Shown: positions 292 to 59,951 of the stretch, piece by piece | Layout of the letters: the number at the start of each line of letters is the position of its first letter | How positions within the stretch are numbered: the first letter of the stretch is position 1 | Source: Candidatus Bathyarchaeia archaeon | Lineage (GTDB): Archaea; Thermoproteota; Bathyarchaeia; Bathyarchaeales; DTEX01 | Length of the DNA: 64,000 nt | Reading direction: 5' to 3' | NCBI GenBank assembly: GCA_038868075.1 | Contig: JAWBXB010000002.1 | Span: 7,375 to 71,374, forward strand | Position numbers and translations under genes: made by a program | Notes under the pieces: model-generated | Told to the model about the DNA's origin: nothing | What the model saw: only the letters and a program-made list of their open reading frames with translations | Databases searched by the model: none

Positions 292-1740
292 TTAGCCTAA
301 GGGTATTGCTCCCTTCAATTCTCGAACTCTCTGCAATATTTTTTGCAGGATCTCCTCATCTGTTAAGATGCCCGGAGGCGGCTCAATAACTTTTTTGAGT
401 GGCAGTGGAACATGGTCCATTCGATACGTTGTCCCCTCAGCCTCGATTCCAACGAAGGCTGATGGAATCACAACATCAGCCATTAAGGCTGTTGGCGTTA
501 AGCAGGGATCAATAACTATAAGTGGATTTTTAATGAGGCTTTCAACAGCTTTTCTAGGGAAGCTTGAGACCGGATCTGATGCTATAACTAGTGCTGCATC
601 TGCATCACCCCTAGAAAGAATATCAATAGCGGATGTTTCTCCGGGATTGTACATTGGATAACCATGTGAAAAGTCAATAGCGTATGGATAACCAGTTTGC
701 CACGTGAAAACAACATTTGCTCCGGTTACATTAAAGTGCCCCCTCATTGGCATTATTAGAAACTTTGTGTACTTATTTAAATCTCTAGTGAGCTTTATTG
801 CAGCCTCCACATTCCTAGATTTTCCAATACTCATGGTTAAGCCTAAGCCAAAAAATATTATGCCAAATCTCGCATTGACCATCAGGTCAGCTAGTTCTTC
901 AAGCCTTTCAATAGGAACACCAGCAACTTCATCAACATCGAGTTCCTCATCACGAACTAAGGCTCGTAGAGCCTGAAGAACAGCATAATCTCCACTTGGC
1001 TTAATTCTGATAAAAATGTCAGCCAGATCAGCAGATCTAGTCTTCTGAACATCAATAACAACCATCTTTCTCTCTTCTGGATGAGACAAAACATGCGTCT
1101 CTTCATCTTCAGTAATCGATAACGTCTTAGCTCCGCCTTTAAAAACTAGACTGGCAACCCTATAGCGCTTCTTCCTAGCAGACTCAAGAATTAAGTGTGA
1201 TAAATAGCGCTTCCATATAGCTTTCTGAAACCTTCCCTCAGCTAATGCTGTGTATCGCTCTATATGTCGTGGATGAGCGCTCCAAGGATTACTTCCCCAA
1301 TATATGATTAAATCAGCCCTATGTCTTATTTGTCCAAGAGTGCATCCAGGTATTCCAACTTCTTGAATAGCTAAAATTGAGGGACCGTGACAAACGGTTG
1401 TAGTGTTATCTATAACCCCGCCAACTTCTTCGGCTAGCTCTAAACCAATCCTTATAGCTTCACAACTAGTATTACTCCAGCCGTAAAGGAGCGGATAATG
1501 AGCATTAACAAGAATTTCAGCACACCGCTCTATAGCCTCATCTAATGAGACTTCAACCAAATTGCCATTCTTTCTGATAAGCGGCTTAACGTTCCTATGC
1601 TTACTATAGCCTAGAAATTTTGAAGCGCCAAGGGCACATGCGTTTCTCACGTCAATTATCTGCTGATTTTCAACGATAACCTTTATATCATCACAGCAGC
1701 ATCCGCAAAATGGACAAATAATTCCTGAAAATATCGGCAT
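292..1740 (-). CDS. fwdB: formylmethanofuran dehydrogenase subunit B (molybdopterin oxidoreductase family)
   Basis: 482 aa. The N-terminal CPFCGCCCDD cysteine cluster and overall molybdopterin-oxidoreductase layout are typical of FwdB/FmdB. fwdD lies directly upstream in the operon and ftr is divergent. Confidence 0.85.
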   Translation of the reverse strand: MPIFSGIICPFCGCCCDDIKVIVENQQIIDVRNACALGASKFLGYSKHRNVKPLIRKNGNLVEVSLDEAIERCAEILVNAHYPLLYGWSNTSCEAIRIGLELAEEVGGVIDNTTTVCHGPSILAIQEVGIPGCTLGQIRHRADLIIYWGSNPWSAHPRHIERYTALAEGRFQKAIWKRYLSHLILESARKKRYRVASLVFKGGAKTLSITEDEETHVLSHPEERKMVVIDVQKTRSADLADIFIRIKPSGDYAVLQALRALVRDEELDVDEVAGVPIERLEELADLMVNARFGIIFFGLGLTMSIGKSRNVEAAIKLTRDLNKYTKFLIMPMRGHFNVTGANVVFTWQTGYPYAIDFSHGYPMYNPGETSAIDILSRGDADAALVIASDPVSSFPRKAVESLIKNPLIVIDPCLTPTALMADVVIPSAFVGIEAEGTTYRMDHVPLPLKKVIEPPPGILTDEEILQKILQRVRELKGAIPLG

Positions 1741-1758
1741 TTCTAAACCACCCCTAAC

Positions 1759-2145
1759 TCACTTATTTCCGTAAGTCTTAATTAAAAGATCTTTTAAGTT
1801 TGAGATTGGCTCATTTGTTGGCTCAATTTTAACCTTAAACCCCTTAAGTAATGGCATACCAGTTCCTTCAGTCTCTGAGGGTAAGATCGTATTTACCCAA
1901 GGTCCGAATGGAATAAACACGATGCCTGAGTCTCTAATTCTCCTAGACCTCTTAGCTTTAACAATAACTGAACCAATCTCGGTAGTAATTCTGACATTGT
2001 CCCCGTCCTTTATATTTAGTTTTTTCATGTCATCTTGATTCATTTCACAGACGGCAACGCTCATCTTATACTCTTCAGAGAGTTTAGCATACTCTTTAGT
2101 GCAACCCTGTTTAATTGTCCTACCAGTAATTAACGTGAACTCCAT
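1759..2145 (-). CDS. fwdD: formylmethanofuran dehydrogenase subunit D (molybdopterin dinucleotide-binding domain)
   Basis: 128 aa starting MEFTLITGRTIKQG. Size and beta-barrel molybdopterin-binding domain pattern fit FwdD. It sits 18 nt upstream of fwdB on the same strand. Confidence 0.8.
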   Translation of the reverse strand: MEFTLITGRTIKQGCTKEYAKLSEEYKMSVAVCEMNQDDMKKLNIKDGDNVRITTEIGSVIVKAKRSRRIRDSGIVFIPFGPWVNTILPSETEGTGMPLLKGFKVKIEPTNEPISNLKDLLIKTYGNK

Positions 2146-2270
2146 ACTGCTCTCTCTTCTCCTAGATATGTTTTTGCCATAGTGCGGTGCGTGAGCACTT
2201 TAATCCTTAAAAGCGTTATATCCTTAAATAAACCTTTCATAAAAATAATATCCTAAATCCTCCTTTAGAG

Positions 2271-3215
2271 GTGTCATTGAATTTGGTCCTCCTCAATTAT
2301 CATGGTGTTGATATTGAGGATACATTTGCAGAGATGTTTGAAATGTGGGTTAGCAGAATCCTAGTAACCGCTGAGAATGAGAAGTGGGCTCTAATTGCTG
2401 CTGAAGTTGCAACTGGCTTCGCATCTTCAATAATTGGTTCACCAGCGGAAGCCGGAATAGAAAGATTGGTTTCAGGAAGCGAGACGCCTGATGGGCGTGT
2501 TGGAGTCTTAATACAGATTTATCATCGAACAAGGAGTGAACTTAAGAGGCAGATGATAGCTCGAATAGGCCAATGTATAATGACGTGTCCAACAACAGCT
2601 GCATTTAATGCTTTGGAGGGAACCGCTAGGAAGCTTAAGGTTGGTAGGAGCTTAAGATTCTTTGGCGATGGGTTCCAGAAGTTTGATGAGATGTACGGGC
2701 GGAAAGTTTGGCGCATACCAGTTATGGAAGGCGAATTTATAGTTGAAAATAGCTTTGGTGTTAAAAAAGGCATTGCTGGCGGGAACTTCTTTATAATGGC
2801 TAAAGATCTGAAATCTGGGCTAGCAGCTTCGGAAGCTGCTGTTGAAGCAATGCGTAGAAATGTTAGGGATGTAATATTGCCATTCCCGGGCGGAGTATGT
2901 CGCTCAGGCTCCAAAGTTGGCTCACTAAAATATAAGCTCTCAGCATCAACAAACCACCTATACTGCCCAAGATTAAGAGGAATTATTCCAGACAGCCAGG
3001 TTCCAGAAGATGTGAATACAATTTATGAGATTGTAATAAATGGTCTAAGCTTAGAGAGCGTTAAGATGGCTATGGCTGAGGGTATAAAAGCCGCTGTTAA
3101 AATTCCCGGCGTAATTAGAATATCTGCTGGAAACTACGGTGGTAAAATCGGTCCAATAAAAATATATCTAAGAGATATCTTACATGGTTGCGAGGTCGTA
3201 AAATGGAAAAAATAA
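2271..3215 (+). CDS. ftr: formylmethanofuran--tetrahydromethanopterin N-formyltransferase
   Basis: 314 aa. The GVDIEDTFAEMFEMWVSRILVTA start and full-length similarity match the Ftr family as I remember it. The start is GTG in the track and the true start is uncertain by a few codons. Confidence 0.9.
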   Translation: MSLNLVLLNYHGVDIEDTFAEMFEMWVSRILVTAENEKWALIAAEVATGFASSIIGSPAEAGIERLVSGSETPDGRVGVLIQIYHRTRSELKRQMIARIGQCIMTCPTTAAFNALEGTARKLKVGRSLRFFGDGFQKFDEMYGRKVWRIPVMEGEFIVENSFGVKKGIAGGNFFIMAKDLKSGLAASEAAVEAMRRNVRDVILPFPGGVCRSGSKVGSLKYKLSASTNHLYCPRLRGIIPDSQVPEDVNTIYEIVINGLSLESVKMAMAEGIKAAVKIPGVIRISAGNYGGKIGPIKIYLRDILHGCEVVKWKK

Positions 3216-3820
3216 GCTTTGCAGCTAGAAATTTTGTGTCGGTGGATCCAAGCAAATGCATAGGTTGCAGCGTATGCGAGTTTATATGCGCTCTTGAGAA
3301 AGAAGGCGAGCCGAATCCAATAAAGTCTAGGATAAGAGTAATACACTTAAATCCAATATTCAATCTTGTTGTTGTATGCCGGTTTTGTGAGAAAGCACCA
3401 TGTGTAAGGGCTTGTCCACGTGATGCAATTAAGCAATCTGAGAAGGGTGGAATATTAATTATAGACGAAACGAAGTGTGATGGCTGTGTCCTATGTATAC
3501 AAGCGTGCCCCTTCGGTGGGATAATGTTAGATCCAGATAAGGGCGTTGTTATCGCATGTGATCTATGTAATGGAGCGCCAAAATGTATTGAATTTTGTCC
3601 AGAAGAAGCTTTAAAGCTCGTGTCAGATGACAAATATTTCAACGAAGCTCTCTCTTCAACGATAAAGAAATTGCCAAAAGAAATTGAGAAAATATCTAGT
3701 ATAACTAAAATTGGAAAATGGGGGGACATATTCACAGAGGCTGAAGAAAGAACCCGTAGGTTTGAAGAGAAGCTCAGAGCCTTAAAAGTCAAAAGAAAAC
3801 TTAGGCAAAATAGCGTATAA
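3203..3820 (+). CDS. 4Fe-4S multi-cluster ferredoxin-domain protein with a charged C-terminal tail
   Basis: Repeated CxxCxxCxxxC(P) motifs are present: CIGCSVCEFIC, CRFCEKAPCVRACP, CDGCVLCIQACP and CDLCNGAPKCIEFCP. I prefer the ATG at 3203 (MEKISF...) over the TTG at 3188. It overlaps the ftr stop, which suggests co-transcription. Confidence 0.7.
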   Translation: MEKISFAARNFVSVDPSKCIGCSVCEFICALEKEGEPNPIKSRIRVIHLNPIFNLVVVCRFCEKAPCVRACPRDAIKQSEKGGILIIDETKCDGCVLCIQACPFGGIMLDPDKGVVIACDLCNGAPKCIEFCPEEALKLVSDDKYFNEALSSTIKKLPKEIEKISSITKIGKWGDIFTEAEERTRRFEEKLRALKVKRKLRQNSV

Positions 3821-3830
3821 ACTTTATTCT

Positions 3831-4052
3831 CTAAAAGATGCTGAAAAACCTCTTTTCGCTCCACCTTCTTGATATCTTGGCAGAGCTCTCTGAGATCTGA
3901 AACTCAAAACCACAGCTTGGGCACTTAACATATTCGCAACTTAAGGACGAAAGCATTCTACTGCAACTTTGACATGAAACTGTTCTGGCATATAAAATGT
4001 TAAATTCGAAACTACATTTGGGACATACTATTGCCTGATGTCTACGAGACAA
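3831..4052 (-). CDS. small zinc-ribbon protein, function unknown
   Basis: 73 aa with paired CxxC motifs: CPKCSFEF...CQSC and CPSCGFEF. Confidence 0.4.
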   Translation of the reverse strand: MSRRHQAIVCPKCSFEFNILYARTVSCQSCSRMLSSLSCEYVKCPSCGFEFQISESSAKISRRWSEKRFFSIF

Positions 4053-4183
4053 TTATTTTCCCTCCGCTTGCTAAAGATTATTAGGTGAATCATAAATAAA
4101 AAATTATCATTTTTATTGCATAAGAATTTGAGCGCAATCTTTAACTACATATTTATCCTAGAAATTATTTTGGATGAAAGTTC

Positions 4184-4576
4184 ATGGAGAAATTTTTACC
4201 GATACTTAATGTCATACAAATTAGATTAAGAGAGATATTAAATAGGAATAGGGATGGAATCTCTTCTTGGGATTCAAAGAAACTTAAGGATGTAGGTGAC
4301 GATTTAATCAGACTCTCAGCCGATGTACATTCACAGCTAGCTTTAGTTGAGCATAGAATACTTTATCAATCTATAAGGGAGGCAGGGTTGGGAATAAGAA
4401 GAAGGGCTATGTTGATTAAAAATAGAGAAATCAGTGATGAAGATAAAGAGTATTTTGAAAGCGTTTATGAAGCTCTCTTAAATCTATGTCAAAAAATCGA
4501 AAGTGGAGAATATTACAGTGCTTTACTCGAAATGGCTAAGAAAAAAGAGAGAAAAGAAAACGATTATCCGTCTTAA
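4184..4576 (+). CDS. hypothetical all-helical protein
   Basis: 130-aa ORF with a lysine/glutamate-rich tail. I recognise no motif. Confidence 0.4.
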   Translation: MEKFLPILNVIQIRLREILNRNRDGISSWDSKKLKDVGDDLIRLSADVHSQLALVEHRILYQSIREAGLGIRRRAMLIKNREISDEDKEYFESVYEALLNLCQKIESGEYYSALLEMAKKKERKENDYPS

Positions 4577-4603: not shown

Positions 4604-7333
4604 TTATTCCCTAATGTTCAGAAATCTCTCTTTGACCCTCTTAAAGTCGAGCAAAGCGAGCGATGCGGCTTCAAGAAATGTTTGAACAGGAACTATTTTC
4701 ACACCTTTCTCCAAAAGTATCTTCTCGGTCTCAAAATTCTTTAAACGCTCATAATTGTATTTTGGCATAATAAGTATGCGAGCATACTGGTCGGATAATG
4801 CAGCCTCAATTTTACCCATTCCACGGTAGTCAAGTCCACCGACAGGCCAAACTTCGCCTAATGCTGTTATCGCTCCAGTCATGACAACAGTTGGATCAAC
4901 TTCAACTCCGGTGAAAGCCGATAACATAGCTATGGCTATTGCAAGTCCGGCTGATGGTCCTGAAACCGGAGATCTCATTATTCCTGGGCTAATTATCTGT
5001 TTTTCCATACCCTTCGCAGGGGTCACTATCTCGACGTATACATCATAATCTTTGAATTTCCAATCCGATATCGAGTTTATGTATATAAATGCATCATATG
5101 CACTTGCAAGTATACTTTCACCAGCTTCGCTCCCGATCACATTGACTTTCCCTGAACCCTTTGGGTTAACGATAACTTCGATCACCCCTACAAACCCGCC
5201 CATCTCACCCCGCTCCCCAATAGCTATAAGTCCATAGCTCTTGCCAACCTCAGGCTTTTGAATTCTTACGGTTTCCAGCATCATCTTCTGTGCCTCCTCA
5301 ATAGCTTCATCATGCGTTCTTTCAATAGCCTTTTCAAAATGATATAACCTAAGCGGATAATTTTCCGGCTCAATTTTCTCAATCTTTTTCAGTAGATCTG
5401 GGTCTTCATAGCTAAGTTTGAGCACCGTAAATAATCTCTCTAAGTCATTTCCGTATAATTTCTTTACTTCCTCAACTTTTTCAGGCCTGTATTTCATTGC
5501 ATGCATAAGCCTGTAGCACGCCTCAATCTCTTTTGTTCTAAGACGGTTAGCGTCATCAATTGCATCAGCAATCTTTCTTGGACTTAGAATCTTTTTCTCA
5601 AAGATCCTAAGAATGTCATTGGAAGTTAATCCTTTCTCTAGGTGATGCTTATACCTCCTAAGATGAATCTCTATAATCTCGAGCTTCTCTTCCTTATTCT
5701 TTGGATAGGTGAACTCGAAGTGTCTTGTGAATCGCTCAAGTAATGCTGGGTCTAGAATTTCGAAGCGATTTGTCGCCCCGATAACAACAACATTTGTGAG
5801 CGGGGTGAAACCGTCCATTTCAGTAAGTAACTGGGAGACAACTCTATCGATAACTGGATCATGAGTCCCTCTTCTTGGGGCGATAGCGTCAATTTCATCA
5901 AAAAATATTATTGCGGGTGCATTCTTACGTGCATCCTCAAAGATATCACGTATAGTTTTCTCCGGATCACCATAATGCCCTTGGAGTATAGATGGACCAT
6001 TAATATTATAGAACCAAACATTATTTTCTCCAGCTATTGCCTTAGCTAATAGGGTCTTACCAGTGCCAGGCGGACCATAGAATATAAAGCCTTTTGGAGG
6101 TAAGTAGCCGGATCTAATGGCTAAGTTTGCATCTAAGGCTAATGATATTTCTTTAATTATCTCATCTTTTATCCCATGAAGCCCGCCCACATCAGTATAC
6201 CTTTCTTTGGGAGCTATCCTAATAATAGCCCTCTTTGCAGCCTCTGTTTTCTCAGCGGATGTATAGCTCTTCAATTTGCGGGCTGCTATTCTAAAATCGC
6301 TTAAATTGACCTCCTTTTTGATGTTTTCGGTTTCTGAGTCACTTTTAGTCCTCAATAAAACTCTATTTATGAGTTTACGTTGAATCGGCTTATATTTCTC
6401 GCTCATGACTATATTAAATGCGTTATGTACGTCGGCTGGGGTTAATTTTGTTCCACCTACGCTTCTTAAAGCATCCTCAAGAGTATCTATTATATCATTA
6501 GGATTAAGCTCTAAGCCATATTTCTGGCACTCTCTTCTAGATATTTCAATAAGCATGTCCCTATTGATTCCGGCATCAAGATCTATTGTTCCTACAATAC
6601 CTCTACGTCTAAGGGTCTCAGTAATAGTTTCATATTCATTTGTGGATATTAACAAAATGCATCTATAATTCTTCTTTTGTAAATCGTCAATTTTCTCTAA
6701 GAAGACTGTTTGAACCCTTTTCTCCTCCATACCAACCTCAGTTGATGAAGCGAAACGGCTACCAAAAGCCTGAAATTCGTCAATTAATATTACACTAGGT
6801 TTTTGAAAAGCCGCTTCAAAGAAAGCACTAAGTTGTTGAGCGCTCCTACCATACCACATAGTATAAACTTCTTCTGGCTTAAGTGAAGCATAGTAAACTA
6901 CTAAACCATATTTTAGCCCAGCTTCAAAAATTTCCCTTTGACACGCTTCGGCAAAAAATGTTTTTCCACTACCTGAGCTTCCCTTTAATATGAAGACTTT
7001 TGGCGGTGGAACAGGGCTATTTTTACGGACTTCAGGATCACGGAATATATGATAATAGGCACTTAGGAAGACTCTTTCAAATTCTTCATCCCGTCCGATA
7101 ACATCGGCTCTTGTTACTTTCGGAAAATCCATTCTCTTCCTTATTGCCCTTGCCCATTTTTCAGCCTCAGCCTTCCTTTTCTCCGGAGGCTTCTGTAAAA
7201 ACCTCCATAATCTATATTGCCAAGAAGTTAAGTAAAGTAATGGGGAGAAAAGTCTTCTTAATCTCGGTCTATTATACCACCATTGGCTTGAAAATTCCTC
7301 CTCCTTTTCCTCATACATGCGTTTCACCACCAA
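4604..7333 (-). CDS. tandem AAA+ ATPase fused to a Lon-type serine protease domain
   Basis: 909 aa. AAA-1 has Walker A GSSGSGKT and Walker B VILIDEF. AAA-2 has GPPGTGKTLLAKA, IIFFDEIDAI and ATNRFEILDPALLERF, a classical Cdc48/FtsH/PAN-like module. The C-terminus has the Lon proteolytic motifs SGPSAGLAIAIA and VGGLDYRGMGKIEAA, so both Ser and Lys are present. Confidence 0.8.
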   Translation of the reverse strand: MVVKRMYEEKEEEFSSQWWYNRPRLRRLFSPLLYLTSWQYRLWRFLQKPPEKRKAEAEKWARAIRKRMDFPKVTRADVIGRDEEFERVFLSAYYHIFRDPEVRKNSPVPPPKVFILKGSSGSGKTFFAEACQREIFEAGLKYGLVVYYASLKPEEVYTMWYGRSAQQLSAFFEAAFQKPSVILIDEFQAFGSRFASSTEVGMEEKRVQTVFLEKIDDLQKKNYRCILLISTNEYETITETLRRRGIVGTIDLDAGINRDMLIEISRRECQKYGLELNPNDIIDTLEDALRSVGGTKLTPADVHNAFNIVMSEKYKPIQRKLINRVLLRTKSDSETENIKKEVNLSDFRIAARKLKSYTSAEKTEAAKRAIIRIAPKERYTDVGGLHGIKDEIIKEISLALDANLAIRSGYLPPKGFIFYGPPGTGKTLLAKAIAGENNVWFYNINGPSILQGHYGDPEKTIRDIFEDARKNAPAIIFFDEIDAIAPRRGTHDPVIDRVVSQLLTEMDGFTPLTNVVVIGATNRFEILDPALLERFTRHFEFTYPKNKEEKLEIIEIHLRRYKHHLEKGLTSNDILRIFEKKILSPRKIADAIDDANRLRTKEIEACYRLMHAMKYRPEKVEEVKKLYGNDLERLFTVLKLSYEDPDLLKKIEKIEPENYPLRLYHFEKAIERTHDEAIEEAQKMMLETVRIQKPEVGKSYGLIAIGERGEMGGFVGVIEVIVNPKGSGKVNVIGSEAGESILASAYDAFIYINSISDWKFKDYDVYVEIVTPAKGMEKQIISPGIMRSPVSGPSAGLAIAIAMLSAFTGVEVDPTVVMTGAITALGEVWPVGGLDYRGMGKIEAALSDQYARILIMPKYNYERLKNFETEKILLEKGVKIVPVQTFLEAASLALLDFKRVKERFLNIRE

Positions 7334-8093
7334 CCATCACGTTATACACTTGATAGAGGATGAATGCGCTTACAAAAATTAGTAGACTAACAATTATTAA
7401 ACGGATCTTTGAAACCCCCTCCGTTTTACTCTTGAAATATGAATCTAGGATGAAAAAAGCGTTAAAATAAGCAAGTATTCCGCTGAATAAGATAAATAAT
7501 GCCATGTTTACTGGCGTTGGAAATTTAAGGGAGAAAAAGGTTGATGAGGAACCGCCTTGAACATTTAGGGTGATAATAATTTTCCAATCTCCCTGCGGCA
7601 TCTTAATCGGTCCAGAAAGTGTTATGAAATAGCCCTGAGGCGTGGCGGAGACTGATCCAGCCCCACCATAGAATTCCCTGTCACTTGTGTAAACACCTAT
7701 AATACCACTCCACTCAACACTAGATCTAAAGTTCACCAAAAGATTATATATTCCCTCATTTCTGGGCTGTACGTATACTAAAGAAACATTTCCCCAAAGC
7801 CGTTCCTCCTTAAATGAGAATAAAACTCTAAGACCGCCTGATCTTGGCGGAATACAGTCAACCGACAGATTTTCCACAGGTGGCCATATTAGAATTGCCA
7901 AGGTATCATCCACTAGAATCCTAAACTCAAATTCGGATGATGCTTCGCCTGCTGAACTAAAACTGAGTGCAGTATATGCTGAAAATAATAGGGTTATGGT
8001 GAAAAATAGAGTTACATATTTACATTGAGAGATTTTTCTTAGCGTGTACTTTGAGGGAGAATTGGTATTATTAAAGATTTTTCTCATTATCAT
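7311..8093 (-). CDS. membrane protein: N-terminal signal anchor, beta-rich ectodomain, two C-terminal TM helices
   Basis: 260 aa. Hydrophobic segments are VTLFFTITLLFSAYTALSF, MALFILFSGILAYFNAFFIL and LIIVSLLIFVSAFILYQVY. Its 3' end overlaps the AAA-Lon start by 23 nt. Confidence 0.55.
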   Translation of the reverse strand: MIMRKIFNNTNSPSKYTLRKISQCKYVTLFFTITLLFSAYTALSFSSAGEASSEFEFRILVDDTLAILIWPPVENLSVDCIPPRSGGLRVLFSFKEERLWGNVSLVYVQPRNEGIYNLLVNFRSSVEWSGIIGVYTSDREFYGGAGSVSATPQGYFITLSGPIKMPQGDWKIIITLNVQGGSSSTFFSLKFPTPVNMALFILFSGILAYFNAFFILDSYFKSKTEGVSKIRLIIVSLLIFVSAFILYQVYNVMVGGETHV

Positions 8094-9527: not shown

Positions 9528-9932
9528 TTGGAGTTTACATTTAAGGGTCGACCGATTGTTTCTGGCAGCGCTAAAGGAGAAGCATTAGTTTCAACAAAAC
9601 CACTGAGCTTTTTGGGGGGTGTTGATCCGAAAACGGGAGTTATAATTGAAAAGGGGCATGATTTGTATGGTAAAAGCATTAAGGATGCGATTTTATGCTT
9701 TCCACATGGACATGGTTCCACAGTAGGTAGCTTTGTACTTTATACGATCGCGAAAAATGGTTTAGCTCCTAAGGCAATAGTGAATACCAGAGCTGATCCG
9801 GTTGTAGTTGTCGGAGCAGTTATTGCTAGCATACCGATGGTTGACGGGATAGACGTTACAAAGATAAAGACTGGTGATATTATAGAAGTTGATGGTGAAA
9901 CTGGAATAGTTAAGATTTATAGGAGAAGTTAG
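9528..9932 (+). CDS. aconitase X swivel-domain protein (DUF126), putative phosphomevalonate dehydratase small subunit
   Basis: 134 aa. The sequence GRPIVSGSAKGEALVSTKPLSFLGGVDPKTGVI...GKSI is characteristic of the AcnX small subunit. It lies immediately upstream of the DUF521-type large subunit. Confidence 0.75.
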   Translation: MEFTFKGRPIVSGSAKGEALVSTKPLSFLGGVDPKTGVIIEKGHDLYGKSIKDAILCFPHGHGSTVGSFVLYTIAKNGLAPKAIVNTRADPVVVVGAVIASIPMVDGIDVTKIKTGDIIEVDGETGIVKIYRRS

Positions 9933-9936
9933 ATAG

Positions 9937-11115
9937 ATGTATCTGACTAGGGAAGAGGAAAAAATCTATAATGGTGAATTCGGCTGGGCCTATCAAATTT
10001 CAATAAAAATTCTTGTTAAGCTAGGTGAGCTCTATGGGGCCAAGCGTCTCATACCCATTGATTCAGCGCATATTTCCGGGGTATCCTATAGGACAATTGG
10101 TGATGCGTCAATAGAGTTTCTTAGAGCGTTATTATCCTCTGGTGGAAGGGTCAGGGTCAGAGCAACAACAAATCCTTCTGGGGTGGAATATGGAAATCCG
10201 ATATTCGCATTTATGCAGCGTGATCTTATTGAAAAGCAAAAAGAAATAATGAAACTGTATAGGGAGATGGGAGTGGACTTAACCCTAACATGTACACCAT
10301 ATTATTTGGAGTCTCCTAGAAGCGGATCGCACTTATCTTGGGCCGAATCTTCAGCTGTAATTTACGCCAATTCGATATTGAATGCCTGGACGAATCGTGA
10401 AGGTGGACCGAGTGCTCTTGCATCAGCATTAGTTGGTAAGACACCGGATTATGGGATGCATCAGCCTGAGAATCGTCGTGCATCCGTACTAGTTAAAATT
10501 GGGGCAAAAATTGAGAGTGAGGCTGATTATGGTGCTTTGGGTATATATTTAGGTAAAGTTTTGGGTGATAGAATTCCATTAATCCATGGCTTACCGAGCG
10601 ACGAAGAACATCTCCTTAAGCAGATGGGCGCTGGAATGGCTACAAGCGGGATGATTTCAATGTTTTACTTGAGTAATAGGGGGAAGGAGAACTCTGAGAT
10701 AAGCGAGACAATAACAGTAGACGACAAAGATATCCACAATATTTATGAAGAACTTTCATCCTCCTCCGAGAAACCGGATCTTATTTTTATTGGATGCCCA
10801 CATTGTTCACTTAATGAGATTAAGTCTATTGCAGGTCTTCTTAGAGGGAGAAAGATTAAGGACGATACTAAATTATGGGTTTGCACGTCGAGATTTGTCC
10901 GTGAAAAAGCGGGAGATTACGTGAAAATAATCGAGTTATCAGGTGGACATGTTATATGCGATACATGCGCTGTTGTTACATGGTTAAAGGATCTTGGTGT
11001 AGAAACGTTAATGACTAGCTCAGCGAAGACAGCATACTATGCACCATTAATGAGTAAAGTTAAAGTTTTATTCTCATCTTTAAAAGAATGCGTAAAAATG
11101 GCATGCTCAGAATAA
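9937..11115 (+). CDS. aconitase X catalytic-domain protein (DUF521), putative phosphomevalonate dehydratase large subunit
   Basis: 392 aa starting MYLTREEEKIYNGEFGWAYQ. It is paired with the DUF126 ORF 4 nt upstream. Confidence 0.75.
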   Translation: MYLTREEEKIYNGEFGWAYQISIKILVKLGELYGAKRLIPIDSAHISGVSYRTIGDASIEFLRALLSSGGRVRVRATTNPSGVEYGNPIFAFMQRDLIEKQKEIMKLYREMGVDLTLTCTPYYLESPRSGSHLSWAESSAVIYANSILNAWTNREGGPSALASALVGKTPDYGMHQPENRRASVLVKIGAKIESEADYGALGIYLGKVLGDRIPLIHGLPSDEEHLLKQMGAGMATSGMISMFYLSNRGKENSEISETITVDDKDIHNIYEELSSSSEKPDLIFIGCPHCSLNEIKSIAGLLRGRKIKDDTKLWVCTSRFVREKAGDYVKIIELSGGHVICDTCAVVTWLKDLGVETLMTSSAKTAYYAPLMSKVKVLFSSLKECVKMACSE

Positions 11116-11126
11116 ATTTTGAGGAG

Positions 11127-12479
11127 CTATTTAAATTCGAATTTAATCCTATCGATTATTTTAGCGGCTTTATCGGTCAGAGGTATGCTGGCTCTATCAA
11201 ATCTTTCTCTTGGCATCCTTAGTGGTCGTGTGGCATCTATTCCAACTTTAGCTGTTAATCCCGTCTCCATGTCCGCGGATGGATCGAGTGTTGACCCTCT
11301 CACATTCTTAATTATTAATAAGTCCTCACTTGCTTGGAATCGTGTTGCAATAGCCCACTCAACCTCCCTAAGGTTAAAAACATCTATATCCATGTCGACC
11401 ACGATTGCGTGTTTTAAGCTTGGATGTGCTGCAAAAGCCGCTAATAAAGCATTCTTTGCGTCACCATCGGTTTGTTTTTCAATGGAGATTACAGCATGAA
11501 GCCATCCGCATCCACCAAAGGAAAGATTAACTGCTTTAACTTTGGGCACAACTCTTGAAACAGCATCATAAATCGCAGCTTCTCTAGGTAAGCCCATTAA
11601 CAGCATATGCTCAGGTCCGCCTGGCAAAAGAGCTTGGTAAATATAATTCTCCCTATGCATTACATTAACAATTTCCACGATGGGCTGAAGACGTTGTGTA
11701 TCATACGCTCCAGTTATATCCACGAATGGTCCCTCCAGCGCTTCCTCGGATCTTGATATTCTTCCCTCAAGTATGATCTCAGATTCTGAGGGCGCGTAAG
11801 CCTCAACCCTTTCACATTTAACCAATTTAAGGTTGCCTTCAAGTAATCTATTAGCGACGCCATACTCGCTGACCCCAAATGGTGGTGATGAGGAGGCTGC
11901 AAGGAGTATGGCTGGATGTACACCTATAGCTATTGCAACATCAAGATCTCTACCAGCGTTCTTTGCTAGATTCCAAAGCTTAAATAAATGTCTTGGAACA
12001 AGTCTTATAACAAGTCGCTTATTATCTAATACAAGGAGTCGGTGGACTGAAACGTTCTCGATACTTCCATTAGGGCTTCTAGCTGATACGATAGCTGAGG
12101 TTATATAGGGTCCAGCGTCACGCTCAAAATGTTTTAAAACTGGAATTTTTAGGAGGTTTGGCTCCTCAACAACCTCTTTAACCGGAGAATCATCAATTAT
12201 TTTTGGGGGCATAGGATTGTTTATGGCTTCAATGATTTTTTTATACATTCCCTCTTCCGTCACTTTTAGAGCCTTATATAATCTCTTTCTCGTTGCACAT
12301 ACATTTCCAACAACTTTTACATCATATCCTTCGACATTATCGAAGAATATTATTGGTGCGTTTTGCGAAGACAAAAAATTCATTATGGCTGAAATTTCGA
12401 ATACTGGTGAAACTTTTTCCCTTATATGAATTACTTCGTTAAGATCTTCCATGCTTGTAAGAAAATCCCTAAGGCTCAT
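11127..12479 (-). CDS. UbiD-family prenyl-FMN-dependent decarboxylase, candidate anhydromevalonate-phosphate decarboxylase
   Basis: 450 aa with UbiD-family length and layout. It converges on the AcnX pair with an 11-nt gap. Confidence 0.75.
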   Translation of the reverse strand: MSLRDFLTSMEDLNEVIHIREKVSPVFEISAIMNFLSSQNAPIIFFDNVEGYDVKVVGNVCATRKRLYKALKVTEEGMYKKIIEAINNPMPPKIIDDSPVKEVVEEPNLLKIPVLKHFERDAGPYITSAIVSARSPNGSIENVSVHRLLVLDNKRLVIRLVPRHLFKLWNLAKNAGRDLDVAIAIGVHPAILLAASSSPPFGVSEYGVANRLLEGNLKLVKCERVEAYAPSESEIILEGRISRSEEALEGPFVDITGAYDTQRLQPIVEIVNVMHRENYIYQALLPGGPEHMLLMGLPREAAIYDAVSRVVPKVKAVNLSFGGCGWLHAVISIEKQTDGDAKNALLAAFAAHPSLKHAIVVDMDIDVFNLREVEWAIATRFQASEDLLIIKNVRGSTLDPSADMETGLTAKVGIDATRPLRMPRERFDRASIPLTDKAAKIIDRIKFEFK

Positions 12480-40790: not shown

Positions 40791-42431
40791 TCAATCAGTA
40801 GGTTTCGCAGATACCTCAATCTTATCGTATTCAGAGAGATCTTTAAGGGTTAATGCTACATCTCTATTAATTAGGATTTCAACATTAAAAAGCCAGGAAT
40901 AAAAGCCGCGATATAATGTTATTGTACCTCTTGGTGTAATCTCTCTTTCAGCGGCATAGGGTTCATTATTTAACGGTTGCCCAGTCCAACAGAGCTTCCC
41001 CTCAGGTATGCCAGCGATATGTATCTGACCTATCCATATACCTATTTCAGGAACACTTGTTATATCTTGATCCCAAGGCCACCTCCTTATCACTACATGC
41101 CAGTAGCCTATTGGAATAACTGGGTCATTACCAATTATCCTTATTGCAGCACCATATGTAGCATTTATACAGGCTGCAACCGTATGCTTAGCCCATAAAT
41201 CATTACCAGGCCAGTCTGGGAAATATGTGTTTACATCCTCCGTTAGAAAGAAAGTTCCATCTTTAACCGAGAGCAAAGGTATAGCGAGTCCACCGCAACC
41301 GAACCAATTATAATATTCATAGCCGCTTCCGGGAGCTGCTCCCGGTCCCTGATTCAAATCTCCAGTCATTTCTAGAGAAAACTTGTATAGGATCCTCGGA
41401 TTATTATATGGAATTGCAAAGAACTCGTATCCTACTCCTAAATTGCCTCTGAGGAACCACTTTCTAGCGTAAATGGCAAGTAATGGTCCTTCTGTCTCAA
41501 TATATGTTTCGCATTTAATGTCTTTGTTAAGCGCATTCATCGGTCCAAAGTAGTATAAGGAGGATTGTAAGAAGCCCTGAGACCATGCTTGCCCAGCACC
41601 CGCATTTGGATCCCAGTGACCAAAAATATATTTTCTGGCGAGATTTACGCTTTCACGCATATCGCTTACGAAATCTATTTCACCTCTATATTCCTCATTA
41701 AATCCTATTTTTATAATATTATTGCTGATAATAACGTAATTCTCATTTCTCCTGGTTATTTCAATCATGCCAGTCTCAGGAGGTATTTGACCCTGCTCAC
41801 CTAATTTAATTGTATAAGTCTTTTTGCCCGTAGGCGCCATTGTAGCCATAAACGTTATTGTCGCAGTTTTAATGTAGCCGCTTTCATAGCGAACTATTCC
41901 CCATATTTGGCAGGGTACTGAATTTTCTCCCTCATAAACCGCTATTTTTGGCTCGGAGAGCTCACCATCTGCGAAAAACATGTTAAAGTGAACCATGTCA
42001 TTCCATTCCTCATTCCTATTATTCTGTAAGTTGAGACGAATCTGCGTAAATTCTGGAGCCTGCTTATTAAACTCTACTGTTCCACCACTAGTTTCTACCG
42101 TTATCTTATATTCTCTTCCATTCCACGGGTAATAAACATTTAGTACTCCACTACTTTTGGGAATGATCAGCAGATTTCTGGGAGCCCACATATTCCATAC
42201 TTCATCATTAATCATAACCCTATTTACCGTAATGTTATTGTCGCCTAAATTTCTCAACTCAATTTTTATTACTCTGTTAAGGGAAAATAGATGCGCATCG
42301 ATAGAAAACTCTATGCTTGCCACTTCAATAGGGCTACCGCTCTGTTGAAACAGAAGGAAGTAAGCAAGTGAACCAGCAATAACTACGATAATAGATATGG
42401 GAATAATCAAGCGTTTAATTAGAGAGCTCAA
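40791..42431 (-). CDS. hypothetical membrane-anchored extracytoplasmic protein
   Basis: 546 aa. It has a single N-terminal TM (LIIPISIIVVIAGSLAYFLLF) and is aromatic and Gly rich. No catalytic motif was recognised. Confidence 0.5.
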   Translation of the reverse strand: MSSLIKRLIIPISIIVVIAGSLAYFLLFQQSGSPIEVASIEFSIDAHLFSLNRVIKIELRNLGDNNITVNRVMINDEVWNMWAPRNLLIIPKSSGVLNVYYPWNGREYKITVETSGGTVEFNKQAPEFTQIRLNLQNNRNEEWNDMVHFNMFFADGELSEPKIAVYEGENSVPCQIWGIVRYESGYIKTATITFMATMAPTGKKTYTIKLGEQGQIPPETGMIEITRRNENYVIISNNIIKIGFNEEYRGEIDFVSDMRESVNLARKYIFGHWDPNAGAGQAWSQGFLQSSLYYFGPMNALNKDIKCETYIETEGPLLAIYARKWFLRGNLGVGYEFFAIPYNNPRILYKFSLEMTGDLNQGPGAAPGSGYEYYNWFGCGGLAIPLLSVKDGTFFLTEDVNTYFPDWPGNDLWAKHTVAACINATYGAAIRIIGNDPVIPIGYWHVVIRRWPWDQDITSVPEIGIWIGQIHIAGIPEGKLCWTGQPLNNEPYAAEREITPRGTITLYRGFYSWLFNVEILINRDVALTLKDLSEYDKIEVSAKPTD

Positions 42432-51015: not shown

Positions 51016-53574
51016 TTAATCTATCTTTAGCTTGATGCTTACACTAATCTTTTCTTTAAAGGCTGGCGCTTCTATTTTAACAACTTCTGAAGGATCGCTC
51101 ACCGTAATCGTTTTCTCAAATCCTTCATCAGTAGATACGCTATAGTTTCCTGCTTCTAAACCCTTTAGCATTATCGTGAAGCTATTTACGCTGTAGTGCG
51201 CTTTTGACACTGCCAAGTTAATCCATTTACTCCCCTTGTTCACTTCAAGCTTGTCTATGTGCGATTTGAGAACAAAAACTTTCAAGTTTAACGGAACAAT
51301 ATACACTCGCACGCGAATTCCGTCAGCTGGTTCTACAATATACGTGCCATCTTTTTCTTCAACCCTACAGCCGTAACCTATTAAACCAAAATCCTTATCC
51401 TTAACCACATAACTTTTCAGTATGGAGAGCGCCGGGTAAAGACCTATGCCGTACTCATTAGACCATGCTGGGTTAAAATAGGAGCCTGGTGATCCATCTG
51501 GTGACCAATTAGGACCAGTACATGCTTCTCCGCTTGAAAGTATTTGACTGAAATATGCTAGAATTCCAGCATAACCTACTTCTAATAATAGGGGTTTTTC
51601 AGGATTCTCATCATATGCATCTAATAGGCACATTGCGTTCTGGGCTGTTGTATAAACGCCTAATGATTTTATGTCGCATCCACGCCACCACCATATGGGT
51701 TGCTGGTGTAGAGTTGCTAAGAGAACCTTAATCGCATCTTCAACCAAATCCATTTTACCCTTATATTTGCGGATAAAATATGTAAACTCGTAGCCAGTTG
51801 TGTCAAATGCGAACTCCGACCTATAAGTATATCTTGTTCCTAGGAAAAAGGCCGCGCCTGAATCAACTTTCTCAAGGAGAGCATTATACTCGTTTACTAG
51901 CCCCTCATTTTTTAAATCGTCAAGAATATTGATAAGGTTCCATTGCCCTATATGCCCTATATTCCTCCACCAGCGAGGAACAATCTCATCTGAATAAAAC
52001 GCAATAGCCGTATTGTAGGCGAGAAGCAGATAATCTTTAGGCGTTTTTCTCGTTAAGCCATAAAGTTTAGCAATTTTATACATGCTATGGTATATGTTAA
52101 ACACATGTGGATAATTGAATGATCTATCAACGCCTGGCTTTGGATCATCCCATATCCAACGTTTAATCGCGTATGTCTCTGGATCCTGAAGTTTACCATA
52201 CAGAAAATTCCATATATAATCGTCTAGAGCTCTTATCTCATCATTATTCGGGTGGTAGACATTCTTTTCCGCCAAAAATAATGGTTCAGCAAAACCTATC
52301 TCGTCACTGCAACCATTCATCCAAGATTTTGGGGGACGAGGCCATCCTGGACCGAAATCCACGAGTGGGGGAGCTGTATCCAAAATTCTCTTATTCTCGC
52401 TATCCCACATTAGGAAGGCATACCGCCTTATATCATTTGGGTCAGTTATTCTCTGGAATGCCATTATGAAAGCCGCTCGCCTATCAATTAAGGTCTCTAG
52501 GTCTTCTATGGAGTAAAAGGGAATATTGAGCCACTCATCTCCATAAATAACTCTTAAGACGCGCTGTCCCCTCTTTTTAAATCTCAGTTTTAATATGCGT
52601 TCTCCATAACCACTTTTTATCTCGGTAATTTCAGTCCATTTATCAGATGTCACTTGACTTATGGGCTTCTTACACTTTAGGGCTACATATGTCTCAAGAT
52701 TTTGGGGGACGACCATGCTTGGAGCTATTTTAATAGCAACTTTCCCTATTTCATACATCTTCTCATTTATTTCCTCATATCCGTTAACCCAGTAAAACTT
52801 GATAGTGAAAGTTTTAGTCTCCCCAGGACCTAAAATAAATGAGTGCAATCCATTAAACCATTCATTCCACTTTCTCTCACCAGCCCTAGCCTTTGAGAAG
52901 AGGAAGAGTGTTGGTGGAGGCTGCCCCATCATTCCCAGATTCCATTGCCCAGTTATGGCTTCAAAAGATGTGTTTTCACCTGGAACCATTAATAGGAATG
53001 GCGGGTTGCCATTAGGTCGTGTAAAATAAATATAGGATGTATGACCAGCAGTGAAGGGATGTATTAAGACACGATCCTCATATGAGTGCGGGCTCCTGCA
53101 TTGGATATTGAATATTAGGGGGATTGAGACTTCTCCAACCTCAATACGGTAGGGAGAATGATTGATAAACGTTAGTTCCCAAACAAAACTTTTGTCTTCC
53201 GGATCTAAGCGAAACACTTCACTCAATTCATAAATATTGAATCCGCCAGCATCAGCCTCAGCGTCATAATATGAAACAGTTACTTGATTCCTATTACACT
53301 TGATTCTTATTCCCCTATCAGTAGAATGATGATAGCTTGTGTTTGCTTCCAGCCATTTCGCCTCTCTTAAATCATATTCCCTAAGGATCCTATACTTGGT
53401 ATTAACGCTGCCAAGCCATGGACCTTTAGGCGGCACAACAAAACTGTTATTTTGCTCATTGCCGGCAAAGTTTGTTCCATACTTATCCTTCGGATTAATT
53501 ATTTCCCTTATTACACCATAATCTTCATTCACTGTTATAATGAAGTGCTCACTCTCCATTTTCCGTAAAACCAT
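51016..53574 (-). CDS. large cytoplasmic hypothetical protein, possibly glycoside-hydrolase-like
   Basis: 852 aa with no signal peptide, Trp/Tyr rich. It has an N-terminal beta-rich part, a central helical-repeat-like part and a C-terminal beta-sandwich-like tail. The family was not recognised with confidence. Confidence 0.5.
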   Translation of the reverse strand: MVLRKMESEHFIITVNEDYGVIREIINPKDKYGTNFAGNEQNNSFVVPPKGPWLGSVNTKYRILREYDLREAKWLEANTSYHHSTDRGIRIKCNRNQVTVSYYDAEADAGGFNIYELSEVFRLDPEDKSFVWELTFINHSPYRIEVGEVSIPLIFNIQCRSPHSYEDRVLIHPFTAGHTSYIYFTRPNGNPPFLLMVPGENTSFEAITGQWNLGMMGQPPPTLFLFSKARAGERKWNEWFNGLHSFILGPGETKTFTIKFYWVNGYEEINEKMYEIGKVAIKIAPSMVVPQNLETYVALKCKKPISQVTSDKWTEITEIKSGYGERILKLRFKKRGQRVLRVIYGDEWLNIPFYSIEDLETLIDRRAAFIMAFQRITDPNDIRRYAFLMWDSENKRILDTAPPLVDFGPGWPRPPKSWMNGCSDEIGFAEPLFLAEKNVYHPNNDEIRALDDYIWNFLYGKLQDPETYAIKRWIWDDPKPGVDRSFNYPHVFNIYHSMYKIAKLYGLTRKTPKDYLLLAYNTAIAFYSDEIVPRWWRNIGHIGQWNLINILDDLKNEGLVNEYNALLEKVDSGAAFFLGTRYTYRSEFAFDTTGYEFTYFIRKYKGKMDLVEDAIKVLLATLHQQPIWWWRGCDIKSLGVYTTAQNAMCLLDAYDENPEKPLLLEVGYAGILAYFSQILSSGEACTGPNWSPDGSPGSYFNPAWSNEYGIGLYPALSILKSYVVKDKDFGLIGYGCRVEEKDGTYIVEPADGIRVRVYIVPLNLKVFVLKSHIDKLEVNKGSKWINLAVSKAHYSVNSFTIMLKGLEAGNYSVSTDEGFEKTITVSDPSEVVKIEAPAFKEKISVSIKLKID

Positions 53575-55011: not shown

Positions 55012-56571
55012 TTGAGAGTAGGTGTGGTCTTAAACATATATAAATTCAAGGTTAAAGCATTTTTCGGAGCCTTTAGGGCATCTAAAGCCAGCATAGTGCT
55101 ATTGCTTGCTTACGTGATAGGTTTTCTTCCAAGTGTGTTTGGTTTTTCAGTGATGATTACTAATGCTGTTAGGCAAGGTGTGTACTCAGAAATTTACACC
55201 GAGATCATAGCAGCTGCGGCGAGTGGACTTATGGCTTTGGCAATTCTATTAGCTTTGAGGGGTTATACCGTGTTTGAGTACGAACAAAACTTTATCTTCA
55301 CATCACCCATAAAACCTAGGGAATTTCTGATTGCAAGTATATTCACAGATTTAACTTCCTCTCTAGTTTTCGCTAACCCAATATTTATTATTTGTACAAT
55401 TGTAGTTTTATGGCTTAACTTATCGTTCGTATCGGCTTTACTTATATTCTCAGCAATCGTTCTCTTTACATTTTTAATCTTCTTTCTTAAAATATCCCTC
55501 TCAATAATAAAAGCTCTGTATAGAAGATTGTGGGTAAATGCGCTTATTTACATACTTATAGTCATCCTACTGCTTCCAGAAATCAGCTTCTTTACTGATT
55601 TACCGCTAAAATATATCTTAATGCCGTATCCCTCAACATTTCTGGCAAGAATTCTCATCGATGGATTATACAATCGTGTAACTCATCCAATAAATTTCTT
55701 TAGCTTAATTTTATACTTCCTCCTGTTAACTATGCTTTTTGTACTATCTTCAAAAAGAAACTTCTTTCCAGTAACAAAACATGTTCCCTTTGTTTCTCCA
55801 TTTGACACCACGATGAGAGTGCAGACAATAAAAATGGAGAGGAGTATTAAAACATTTTCTAGGATAGGGATCTTCTTTACATTAAATCCTGAATCAAAAT
55901 CCCTACTTAATTTTCTAATGAAAAAGGAAATCATTAGAATGATAAGGGACGGAACTCTCTTCACCGTCATACTAATATACTTAATAACTTCTTTTGTAAC
56001 GGCTGCTGTTAGTGCCCGCCCATCAGAGGGACTTTCGACAGTTCTCTTTCTCACGTTTTTCTTAGGCATATACTCATTAATTGTTCCTCTAACACTCATA
56101 AGTAACTGGAGGTTTTCAGATTTTGAGAATCTTTGGATACCCTTAAGTTCAAGTGCGGATATGCGCATAATAATGAAAGCCATTTTATATGATTTCGTAG
56201 TGACATCTTCAATTGTGCCATCCATATTAATACTGATTTTATCTATAATCTCCAGCATTAACCCATTGTTGCCTCTAACACTTGTAATCTCAACATCACT
56301 TATAGGTTGCTCAGCGACCCTATACGTGATAATTAAATTTCTCGGAAGGAAGAGACGCGGGACGCCATCACTACTTATAGGGTGGGCTTCAATGCTATTT
56401 TCAGCTTTACTTCTAACACCAACATATATATTAGTTGCATTAAGCGGATTTATAGAATTAAACAATATCGTAAACATCCTTTCTTCAGCGCTAATATTAA
56501 TTTACTCAGCCTTAATAATGAGGTACTTCGAGGGGAAAATTGAGAAGAACATAGCCAACATAGAAATCTAG
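55012..56571 (+). CDS. polytopic membrane protein, putative permease partner of the preceding ABC ATPase
   Basis: 519 aa with more than 10 hydrophobic segments. It starts directly after the ATPase stop codon. Confidence 0.6.
   Translation: MRVGVVLNIYKFKVKAFFGAFRASKASIVLLLAYVIGFLPSVFGFSVMITNAVRQGVYSEIYTEIIAAAASGLMALAILLALRGYTVFEYEQNFIFTSPIKPREFLIASIFTDLTSSLVFANPIFIICTIVVLWLNLSFVSALLIFSAIVLFTFLIFFLKISLSIIKALYRRLWVNALIYILIVILLLPEISFFTDLPLKYILMPYPSTFLARILIDGLYNRVTHPINFFSLILYFLLLTMLFVLSSKRNFFPVTKHVPFVSPFDTTMRVQTIKMERSIKTFSRIGIFFTLNPESKSLLNFLMKKEIIRMIRDGTLFTVILIYLITSFVTAAVSARPSEGLSTVLFLTFFLGIYSLIVPLTLISNWRFSDFENLWIPLSSSADMRIIMKAILYDFVVTSSIVPSILILILSIISSINPLLPLTLVISTSLIGCSATLYVIIKFLGRKRRGTPSLLIGWASMLFSALLLTPTYILVALSGFIELNNIVNILSSALILIYSALIMRYFEGKIEKNIANIEI

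Positions 56572-56606: not shown

Positions 56607-59951
<3,345 letters not shown>

Follow-up and report, generated by a model that had tools for sequence, protein, structure and literature searches.

A stretch of 64,000 nucleotides from a Candidatus Bathyarchaeia archaeon (the window; positions 7,375 to 71,374 of contig JAWBXB010000002.1, assembly GCA_038868075.1) carries two overlapping genes on its reverse strand. One encodes a protein in which two classical AAA modules precede a Lon (S16) proteolytic domain, and the other, directly upstream, encodes a small membrane protein that we refer to as the partner. The first product is, by its predicted domains, an AAA+ protease of a build that is not in the curated families. 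We consider it probable that the pair is an operon for an ATP-dependent protease at the cytoplasmic membrane face—a hexameric two-ring unfoldase with a fused Lon chamber, held in place by the partner. Feature coordinates in the window are collected in Table 1, and residue numbers of the protease refer to the 909 amino acid (aa) form with a TTG start unless the 904-aa form is named.

The open reading frame (ORF) list contains, as the initial annotation had it, a 909-aa protease ORF at 4604..7333 of the reverse strand, counted from a TTG at 7333. The true start is, however, most likely the ATG five codons downstream, because the public copy of the protein (P0001, from a Candidatus Bathyarchaeia metagenome-assembled genome; 904 aa, ATG start, 100% identical) and its homologues start there, with GGTGGTGA 5 nucleotides (nt) upstream. 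The gene had been described as overlapping its upstream neighbor by 23 nt; the overlap stands, and measured from the ATG its length is 8 nt (ATGTATGA), with GGTGGTGA lying inside the upstream gene. The spacing of the two genes is equally tight in homologous loci, mostly −8 to +22 nt. P0001 carries no name beyond "AAA family ATPase".

Searches against Pfam find AAA (PF00004) in two stretches (E 3.6e-62, 209 bits) and Lon_C (PF05362) over residues 692-894 (E 7e-16), matches that on these scores are far beyond chance; the Lon_C score of 58.8 bits, against a gathering cut-off of 21.1, identifies an S16 Lon peptidase domain. Every motif previously quoted for the three domains was located: GSSGSGKT at 118-125, VILIDEF at 181-187, GPPGTGKT at 420-427, IIFFDEID at 475-482, ATNRFEILDPALLERF at 520-535, SGPSAG at 791-796 and GMGKIEAA at 838-845. 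Both ATPase modules have the features of classical AAA domains, namely the PF00004 match, Walker A and B, pore loop 1 and the second region of homology.

The two modules follow the tandem D1-D2 order of the Cdc48/VAT family, as seen both in NCBIfam model positions and with Foldseek. Residues 63-561 align to positions 163-638 of the CDC48 model (TIGR01243) as one collinear stretch, within which D1 corresponds to model positions 198-336 and D2 to positions 448-638 (192 bits, with PAN at 177 and FtsH at 165). Searched alone, D1 has VAT D1 as its best Protein Data Bank (PDB) match (E 4e-22), with p97 D1 also among the best, and its MWYG aligns with the KYYG pore loop of VAT. An AlphaFold2 model of the protease was built from 60 family sequences, with a mean predicted local distance difference test (pLDDT) score of 78.7, and with this model Foldseek aligns 600-650 columns to p97, Cdc48, NVL, Rix7 and VAT chains (E ~1e-27). 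The second module had been assigned to the Cdc48/FtsH/PAN type, which agrees with these results, and the assignment is corrected in that the classical Cdc48 type applies to the first module as well. The DGF motif of D2 is also present in FtsH, PAN and Rpt subunits. The ATPase part is thus predicted to be a Cdc48-like type II tandem and not the single HCLR-clade AAA+ module that characterizes Lon by clade definition (PMC7973254).

The two rings differ from Cdc48 in their arginine fingers. D1 reads RRRGI where Cdc48 has RRPGR, so that the second canonical Arg finger is missing, and in D2, which reads ALLE--RFTR, a Glu and a two-residue deletion stand in place of the first finger; ALLRxGRFDR is retained at this D2 position in the P0134 and P0137-P0140 clades. 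Each ring retains one canonical Arg finger only.

Residues 1-105 of the protease have no Pfam or NCBIfam family match, and they contain a conserved motif (alignments A1 and A4), EFxxxWWYxRPxLRxxFxPLLYLTSWQYRLWRFLxKPPE; the WWY/LYLTSWQYRLWRF helices are part of this region. The most favorable Wimley-White interfacial energy of the entire protein, −7.6 kcal/mol per 18-mer, falls on LFSPLLYLTSWQYRLWRF at the N-terminus, and the ten best windows are all within positions 13-45 of the 904-aa form. We infer from this a membrane-interface role for the candidate helix LFSPLLYLTSWQYRLWRFL. Between D2 and the protease domain is a helical linker, residues 601-691, which has no family match in Pfam or NCBIfam and is included in the C-terminal profile match of all distant relatives. 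A hydropathy scan of the full protein found no transmembrane (TM) segment, in keeping with what had been claimed from sequence, the only 19-mer above threshold being the buried active-site helix at 794.

When the Lon domain is aligned to LonA and LonB structures, Ser794 falls on their catalytic Ser, and Lys841 falls on the LonB Lys across a four-residue gap opened in LonB. Four extra residues ahead of the Lys had been noticed at the outset, and gapped alignments to the Archaeoglobus fulgidus and Thermococcus onnurineus LonB show that they are real (GGLDYRGMGK against GGVTQ----K); the insertion marks the core family together with its closest clades. The Ser and Lys are consequently 46 residues apart, and not the 42 reported as constant in LonA and LonB (PMC9569914). 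The active site has features of both types: Pro precedes the Ser (SGPSAG), as in LonA, where a B-type active center has Asp ahead of the catalytic Ser (PMC9569914), and the Lys motif GKIEAA resembles that of LonB. An ungapped LonA alignment places Arg837 at the Lys position, but we rejected this residue as the catalytic base, and assign Ser794 and Lys841 as the putative dyad, because across 22 sequences reaching down to 31% identity (alignment A5) the Ser is invariant and the Lys nearly invariant, while position 837 varies in distant relatives. The proposed placement of both residues on the Lon dyad is thus borne out by alignment with known Lon enzymes and by conservation across the family, and this motif conservation argues for a catalytically competent domain.

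The protein falls far below the curated NCBIfam cut-offs for every known family to which it is partly similar. It scores 259.5 bits against a cut-off of 802.65 for CDC48 (TIGR01243); 64.2 against 516.6 for archaeal LonB (TIGR00764), matching over residues 675-902 only, that is, the protease domain; 70.8 against 608 for LonA (TIGR00763) and 40.4 against 891 for LonA (PRK10787); and 193 against 600 for FtsH (TIGR01241), in the AAA core only. Pfam finds neither a LON N domain nor Peptidase_M41. We therefore rejected ordinary LonB, LonC or LonA as its identity, the scores being so low and the match confined to the protease domain; the profile searches that the initial annotation had proposed leave the protein outside all three, with an ATPase part collinear with Cdc48 D1/D2. 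We found no NCBIfam model for a two-AAA plus Lon build, and among the PDB matches listed no single chain has the full domain order, all being either Cdc48-type or Lon-type. Of the Lon_C architectures listed in a 2008 survey of serine proteases in prokaryotes, none has two AAA modules, and the survey counted zero Lon in the five cultured Crenarchaeota genomes that it examined (PMC2605481). We also found no description of the architecture in the searchable full-text literature, which leaves out most subscription-journal papers. The early remark that it was not recognizable as a described family accordingly holds for the searchable literature, NCBIfam and solved structures.

Comparison with the known ATP-dependent proteases shows which parts are shared and which are not. 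In archaea, Cdc48/VAT proteins are type II classical AAA unfoldases that feed the 20S proteasome. The present protein shares with Cdc48/p97/VAT the two tandem classical AAA modules collinear with D1 and D2, with VAT the double-aromatic pore loop of D1, and with all of them the expected nature of a hexameric threading unfoldase coupled to proteolysis. It differs in that the Cdc48 N domain (double-psi barrel/beta-clam) is replaced by family-specific helices, the AlphaFold model being all-helical here; in its C-terminus, FLNIRE, which we read as lacking the HbYX proteasome-docking tail; in having a Lon protease fused in cis and not a separate 20S particle; and in having one canonical Arg finger per ring. 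With FtsH, Yme1 and AFG3L2 it shares a classical-clade AAA module upstream of a protease within one polypeptide and, in our prediction, a membrane-proximal entrance with a distal protease chamber. FtsH, however, combines one AAA ring with a zinc metalloprotease of type M41 and has TM helices and a periplasmic domain of its own, whereas the present system has two rings, a protease of the Ser-Lys type and a proposed anchor in trans.

The similarity to archaeal LonB lies in the C-terminal S16 Ser-Lys protease with its GKIEAA-like Lys motif, in the joining of ATPase and protease in a single chain, and in membrane action by way of a two-helix hairpin, which is expected for both. LonB has a single HCLR-clade AAA+ module into which the TM hairpin is inserted (PMC9569914, PMC7973254), whereas the present protease has two classical AAA modules and leaves the hairpin to a second protein; the residue before the Ser is Pro and not Asp, and the Ser-Lys spacing is also different. 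The A-type motif with Pro before Ser (GPSAG) is shared with LonA and LonBA, from which the protein differs in having no LON N or HI(CC) domain, in the clade and number of its ATPase modules, and in the insertion before the Lys.

Homologues are numerous. More than 100 clusters (at 90% identity) are among the matches listed, with 56-100% identity to the query, and complete members are of about 900 aa. A locus scan using one genome per GTDB species yielded 64 loci from 64 Thermoproteota species genomes, about 35 of them labeled Bathyarchaeia and the rest Brockarchaeota, Marsarchaeota, Thermoproteota, Thermoprotei, Thaumarchaeota and one Nitrososphaera sp.; the complete genome CP117708.1 is among them. 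Pairwise protease identity across the family is 55-99%. Both Walker A and B motifs, the pore loops, the RRR cluster, DGF, and the Ser and Lys are invariant in 60 sequences of 56-100% identity, and the family as a whole is strongly conserved across Thermoproteota lineages. A profile of the linker and Lon domain, searched against 1.84 billion cluster representatives, found about 20 further clusters (at 50% identity) of 860-1120 aa that match the full C-terminal profile; these keep the whole layout at 31-41% identity (alignment A5), and gene calls show AAA, AAA and Lon_C in five distant relatives. The P0134 clade is labeled Nitrososphaerales. A further profile search, with the distant C-termini, returned mostly short fragments and LonA pieces. 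Two homologues of 1261 aa, P0120 and P0166, have an intein (Pfam Intein_splicing and LAGLIDADG_3) in D2, shortly after DGF (A5 columns 727-1092).

The partner, to which P0121 is 100% identical, has hydrophobic segments at residues 27-45, 195-218 and 225-256, as determined by hydropathy. Its AlphaFold model (pLDDT 73) consists of an N-terminal helix, a ten-strand beta sandwich and a helical hairpin. Hydropathy and model thus agree with the original description of this ORF as a signal anchor, a beta-rich ectodomain and two C-terminal TM helices, with the proviso that the N-terminal helix may be either a signal anchor or a signal peptide. The hairpin and its DSYFKSKTEGVSKIR loop are among the best-conserved stretches of the protein, beside a few ectodomain motifs such as PPVENL, and the loop is predicted to be cytoplasmic because of the charge distribution. 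The partner has no match in Pfam, NCBIfam or PADLOC. A known fold for the ectodomain was sought in the PDB with Foldseek and rejected, as only weak Ig-like or chagasin-like matches were found (best E 7e-4, query TM-score ~0.25), which are non-diagnostic.

Six-frame ORFs of the 64 loci were searched with the window's partner protein. A partner homologue (E 1e-8 to 1e-70) lies directly upstream of the protease gene in 59 of the 59 loci that hold upstream DNA, the remaining five ending before the upstream gene. In 44 of these the two genes are co-directional and nearly abutting, and in the other 15, a Brockarchaeota-like group, they are divergent; conservation of the membrane gene next to homologues, on which the proposal of a two-gene system depended, thus extends to both orientations. 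Any other neighbor in the window is kept in 17 loci at most, with almost none beyond the Bathyarchaeia group, and the partner is the sole neighbor kept across lineages and across the inversion. Its sequence changes far more quickly than that of the protease, the mean identities being 29% and 66%. Distance matrices of the two proteins are correlated (Mantel r 0.86, a value reached in 0 of 999 permutations). Two variants were seen among the loci: one Bathyarchaeota genome has two tandem partner copies (L003:2474-3265 and 3324-4145), and in another locus (L022:748-1503) the partner is divided between two ORFs, for which a frameshift or an assembly error is the probable cause.

The arrangement is also seen further out. 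In four of the five distant relatives examined (31-40% identity), the upstream gene encodes a protein of 247-457 aa with the topology of the partner—a TM helix at the N-terminus, then an ectodomain, and at the C-terminus a pair of TM helices with a basic loop between them. Of these genes, one overlaps the protease gene, one abuts it, and one is parted from it by an HNH-like ORF. Those in L065, L070 and L071 are related to each other by BLASTP and not to the window's partner, and a hidden Markov model of the partner family does not match the distant partners. The parting ORF, of 197 aa (L070:4411-5004), lies between the partner (3341-4429) and the AAA-Lon gene of P0144; it was recognized by eye as HNH-endonuclease-like (CxxC...HH) and looks like a mobile insertion into the operon. 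In the clade of P0137-P0140 and P0143, the protease has a long N-terminal extension and the WWY/LYLTSWQYR motif is absent. At the locus of P0138 (L067:1-3911) the three-TM partner is absent, and small ORFs with one TM segment each lie upstream in its place; the N-terminal motif and the partner may be lost together.

The reading in the initial annotation, a two-gene membrane-tethered unfoldase-protease, is supported, none of the refuting conditions set for it having been borne out. We propose that the 904-aa protein would form a hexamer in which three tiers are stacked, with a Cdc48/VAT-like D1 ring at the top, a D2 ring in the middle and a Lon Ser-Lys chamber at the bottom. The aromatic pore loops (MWYG in D1, GHYG in D2) would grip substrates, ATP hydrolysis by one or both rings would unfold them, and they would be threaded by way of the linker helices into the Lon chamber, there to be cut by Ser794/Lys841. 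The N-terminal aromatic and basic helices, together with the TM hairpin and basic loop of the partner, would hold the D1 entrance against the membrane; given the order N-terminus, D1, D2, Lon, an N-terminus docked at the membrane would have the D1 entrance facing the bilayer and the protease chamber distal. FtsH and LonB likewise have the entrance toward the membrane and the chamber distal, so that the geometry would be like theirs, with the anchor supplied in trans. Likely clients would be membrane or membrane-proximal proteins, and the variable beta-sandwich ectodomain may add sensing or selectivity. What the analysis shows is the content and order of the domains, the conservation of every catalytic motif, the lack of TM segments in the protease, the topology of the partner and the strict pairing of the genes. 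The hexamer, the physical binding to the partner, the membrane location and the substrates are all inferred in this proposal, and for membrane association the gene pairing and the interfacial N-terminal helix give indirect support.

Several observations weigh against it. The matrix correlation is expected for any vertically co-inherited neighbors and fits co-inheritance without showing contact. If the first TM helix of the partner is a cleaved signal peptide, only about 15 cytoplasmic residues would be left, a small docking surface. One ring may hydrolyze ATP poorly, because the second Arg finger of D1 and the first of D2 are lost. The loop with the four-residue insertion next to Lys841 has a pLDDT below 50, so that the active-site geometry is not modeled. 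Finally, the P0137-P0140 clade has a different N-terminus, and P0138, its one locus read, has no such partner nearby.

How the partner might serve the protease can be read in other ways. A bolder version of the proposal, which we regard as possible though unlikely, makes the pair a self-contained membrane-protein dislocase and protease, in which six hairpins around the D1 pore would form or open a lateral path within the bilayer, and the Cdc48-like double ring would extract membrane proteins and feed its own Lon chamber directly. About equally doubtful is a role of the membrane protein as a sensor or regulated substrate and not a passive anchor, in which its ectodomain would pick up a signal from the envelope or surface, whereupon the AAA-Lon enzyme would extract and destroy the partner, or a client that the partner presents; regulated proteolysis of membrane anti-sigma factors and the control of FtsH by HflKC are parallels. 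Surface modules that evolve fast typically serve in sensing or recognition, and both the rapid divergence of the partner relative to the protease and an ectodomain variable in sequence and size (150 to ~350 residues), beside a constrained hairpin and loop, are as a sensor would predict. Yet no ligand-binding or signaling domain is recognizable in the ectodomain, given only the weak Ig-like Foldseek matches, and no transcription factor is conserved nearby. Sensing is in any case compatible with anchoring and not exclusive of it. That the AAA-Lon protein works in the cytosol as a soluble protease of general purpose, the membrane gene being only co-regulated or co-inherited with no physical coupling, we find distinctly improbable. 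The protease has no TM segment, its Cdc48/VAT relatives are soluble, and the distant relative P0138 has no partner, all of which such a protease would allow; but it would leave unexplained why adjacency persists in all 59 informative loci and survives inversion while all other neighbors are lost, why same-topology partners stand beside four relatives of only 33-40% identity, and why the N-terminus is the most interface-prone part of the protease.

Two other alternatives concern what the protease itself does. The Lon domain could be degenerate and non-catalytic, leaving only a segregase or chaperone; in MtaLonC the situation is reversed, the protease being active and the ATPase dead. The odd insertion beside the catalytic Lys, the spacing of 46 and not 42, and the low model confidence at the insertion are compatible with inactivity, but the invariance or near-invariance of Ser and Lys in 22 divergent sequences and the strong conservation of GPSAG and GK make it very improbable. 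More improbable still, to the point that we give it hardly any weight, is an anti-virus defense or mobile-element module comparable to AAA-plus-protease systems such as IetAS or BrxL. PADLOC IetA models do match D2 (E 8e-42); these matches, however, are limited to the core that classical AAA domains have in common, the genes around the protease gene are of the housekeeping kind (Ftr, AcnX, UbiD-like, EF-2), and the protease gene is highly conserved in the 64 species genomes, with divergence that tracks its neighbor's. PADLOC yielding generic AAA matches only, and none for the partner, we rejected a defense system.

Table 1. Positions in the window of the protease and partner genes and of their domains and motifs.
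Feature	Coordinates	Strand	Details
Membrane partner gene	7311..8093	-	260 aa (258 aa from second ATG); overlaps protease gene by 8 nt
Partner N-terminal TM helix	7959..8015	-	residues 27-45; AlphaFold helix 21-44
Partner ectodomain, all-beta sandwich	7557..7943	-	residues ~51-179; ten strands, pLDDT 83-92
Partner C-terminal TM hairpin	7326..7514	-	residues 194-256; AlphaFold helices 192-223, 227-253
Hairpin short basic loop DSYFKSKTEGVSKIR	7401-7445	-	well conserved in sets of 11 and 60 sequences
AAA-AAA-Lon protease gene	4604..7318	-	904 aa from ATG at 7318 (most likely start); stop codon 4604-4606
N-terminal region	7019..7318	-	residues 6-105; helical, aromatic/basic-rich; AlphaFold helices pLDDT 82-88
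Candidate membrane-interface helix LFSPLLYLTSWQYRLWRFL	7196..7252	-	residues 28-46; Wimley-White interfacial energy
D1, classical AAA module	6299..7018	-	PDB matches, CDC48 model alignment
D1 Walker A GSSGSGKT	6959-6982	-	
D1 pore loop MWYG	6848-6859	-	
D1 Walker B VILIDEF	6773-6793	-	
D1 Arg cluster RRR	6602-6610	-	
D2, classical AAA module	5534..6211	-	Pfam AAA over 417-542; alignment A5
D2 Walker A GPPGTGKT	6053-6076	-	
D2 pore loop GHYG	5969-5980	-	
D2 Walker B IIFFDEID	5888-5911	-	
D2 DGF motif	5807-5815	-	
D2 second region of homology ATNRFEILDPALLERFTR	5723-5776	-	bears two-residue deletion
Helical linker, D2 to protease	5261..5533	-	residues 601-691, ~90 aa, family-specific; AlphaFold helices 580-683 (904-aa numbering)
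Lon (S16) proteolytic domain	4652..5260	-	Pfam Lon_C
Lon Ser motif SGPSAG	4946-4963	-	holds Ser794
Lon Lys motif GGLDYRGMGKIEAA	4799-4840	-	holds Lys841 and four-residue insertion

The window, at ~39% G+C, is ordinary chromosome. At 292-3820 are two Fwd/Fmd-like molybdopterin subunit genes (reverse strand), Ftr (formylmethanofuran:tetrahydromethanopterin formyltransferase; forward) and a poly-ferredoxin (forward), which we read as genes of the tetrahydromethanopterin C1 pathway of Bathyarchaeia. The small and large subunits of aconitase X (AcnX; forward), with an adjoining UbiD-family gene (reverse), are at 9528-12479 and are read as genes of the archaeal modified mevalonate pathway; this set stands beside the operon in close Bathyarchaeia only, at 13 loci. 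Nearer to the protease are a gene convergent to it for a 130-aa helical protein with no family match (4184-4576, forward), kept in 17 Bathyarchaeia loci, and a 73-aa ORF with several CxxC pairs (3831-4052, reverse), kept in 12. The window also holds EF-2, a Clp1-like kinase and GatB/E. An 852-aa DUF5695 protein (51016-53574, reverse) and a 1092-aa protein resembling beta-galactosidases of glycoside hydrolase family 2 (56673-59951, forward) point to a possible use of carbohydrates. Pfam gives no match for two other ORFs, one of 546 aa (40791-42431) and one of 519 aa (55012-56571).

ATP-dependent proteases are known in a small number of fixed builds, namely Lon, with one HCLR-clade ring and S16; FtsH, with one classical ring and M41; Clp and HslUV; and PAN or Cdc48 with the 20S proteasome. 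A Cdc48-type double ring and a Lon domain in one chain show that unfoldase and protease modules have been recombined across AAA+ clades, here with the membrane anchor apparently supplied by a separate, strictly linked gene. "AAA family ATPase" is the only name given to these proteins in public records, and it hides the predicted protease function in annotation. Should the dislocase version be true, the pair would be an archaeal counterpart, working without ubiquitin, of Cdc48-driven extraction, similar to endoplasmic reticulum-associated degradation, and would replace LonB and FtsH in Thermoproteota. The compact and often thermophilic system would be suited to studying how substrates are handed over from two stacked rings to a fused protease, and to asking how an adaptor in the membrane, acting in trans, brings an AAA machine into position. 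For the Thermoproteota lineages that carry it, the pair is a candidate membrane-quality-control protease.

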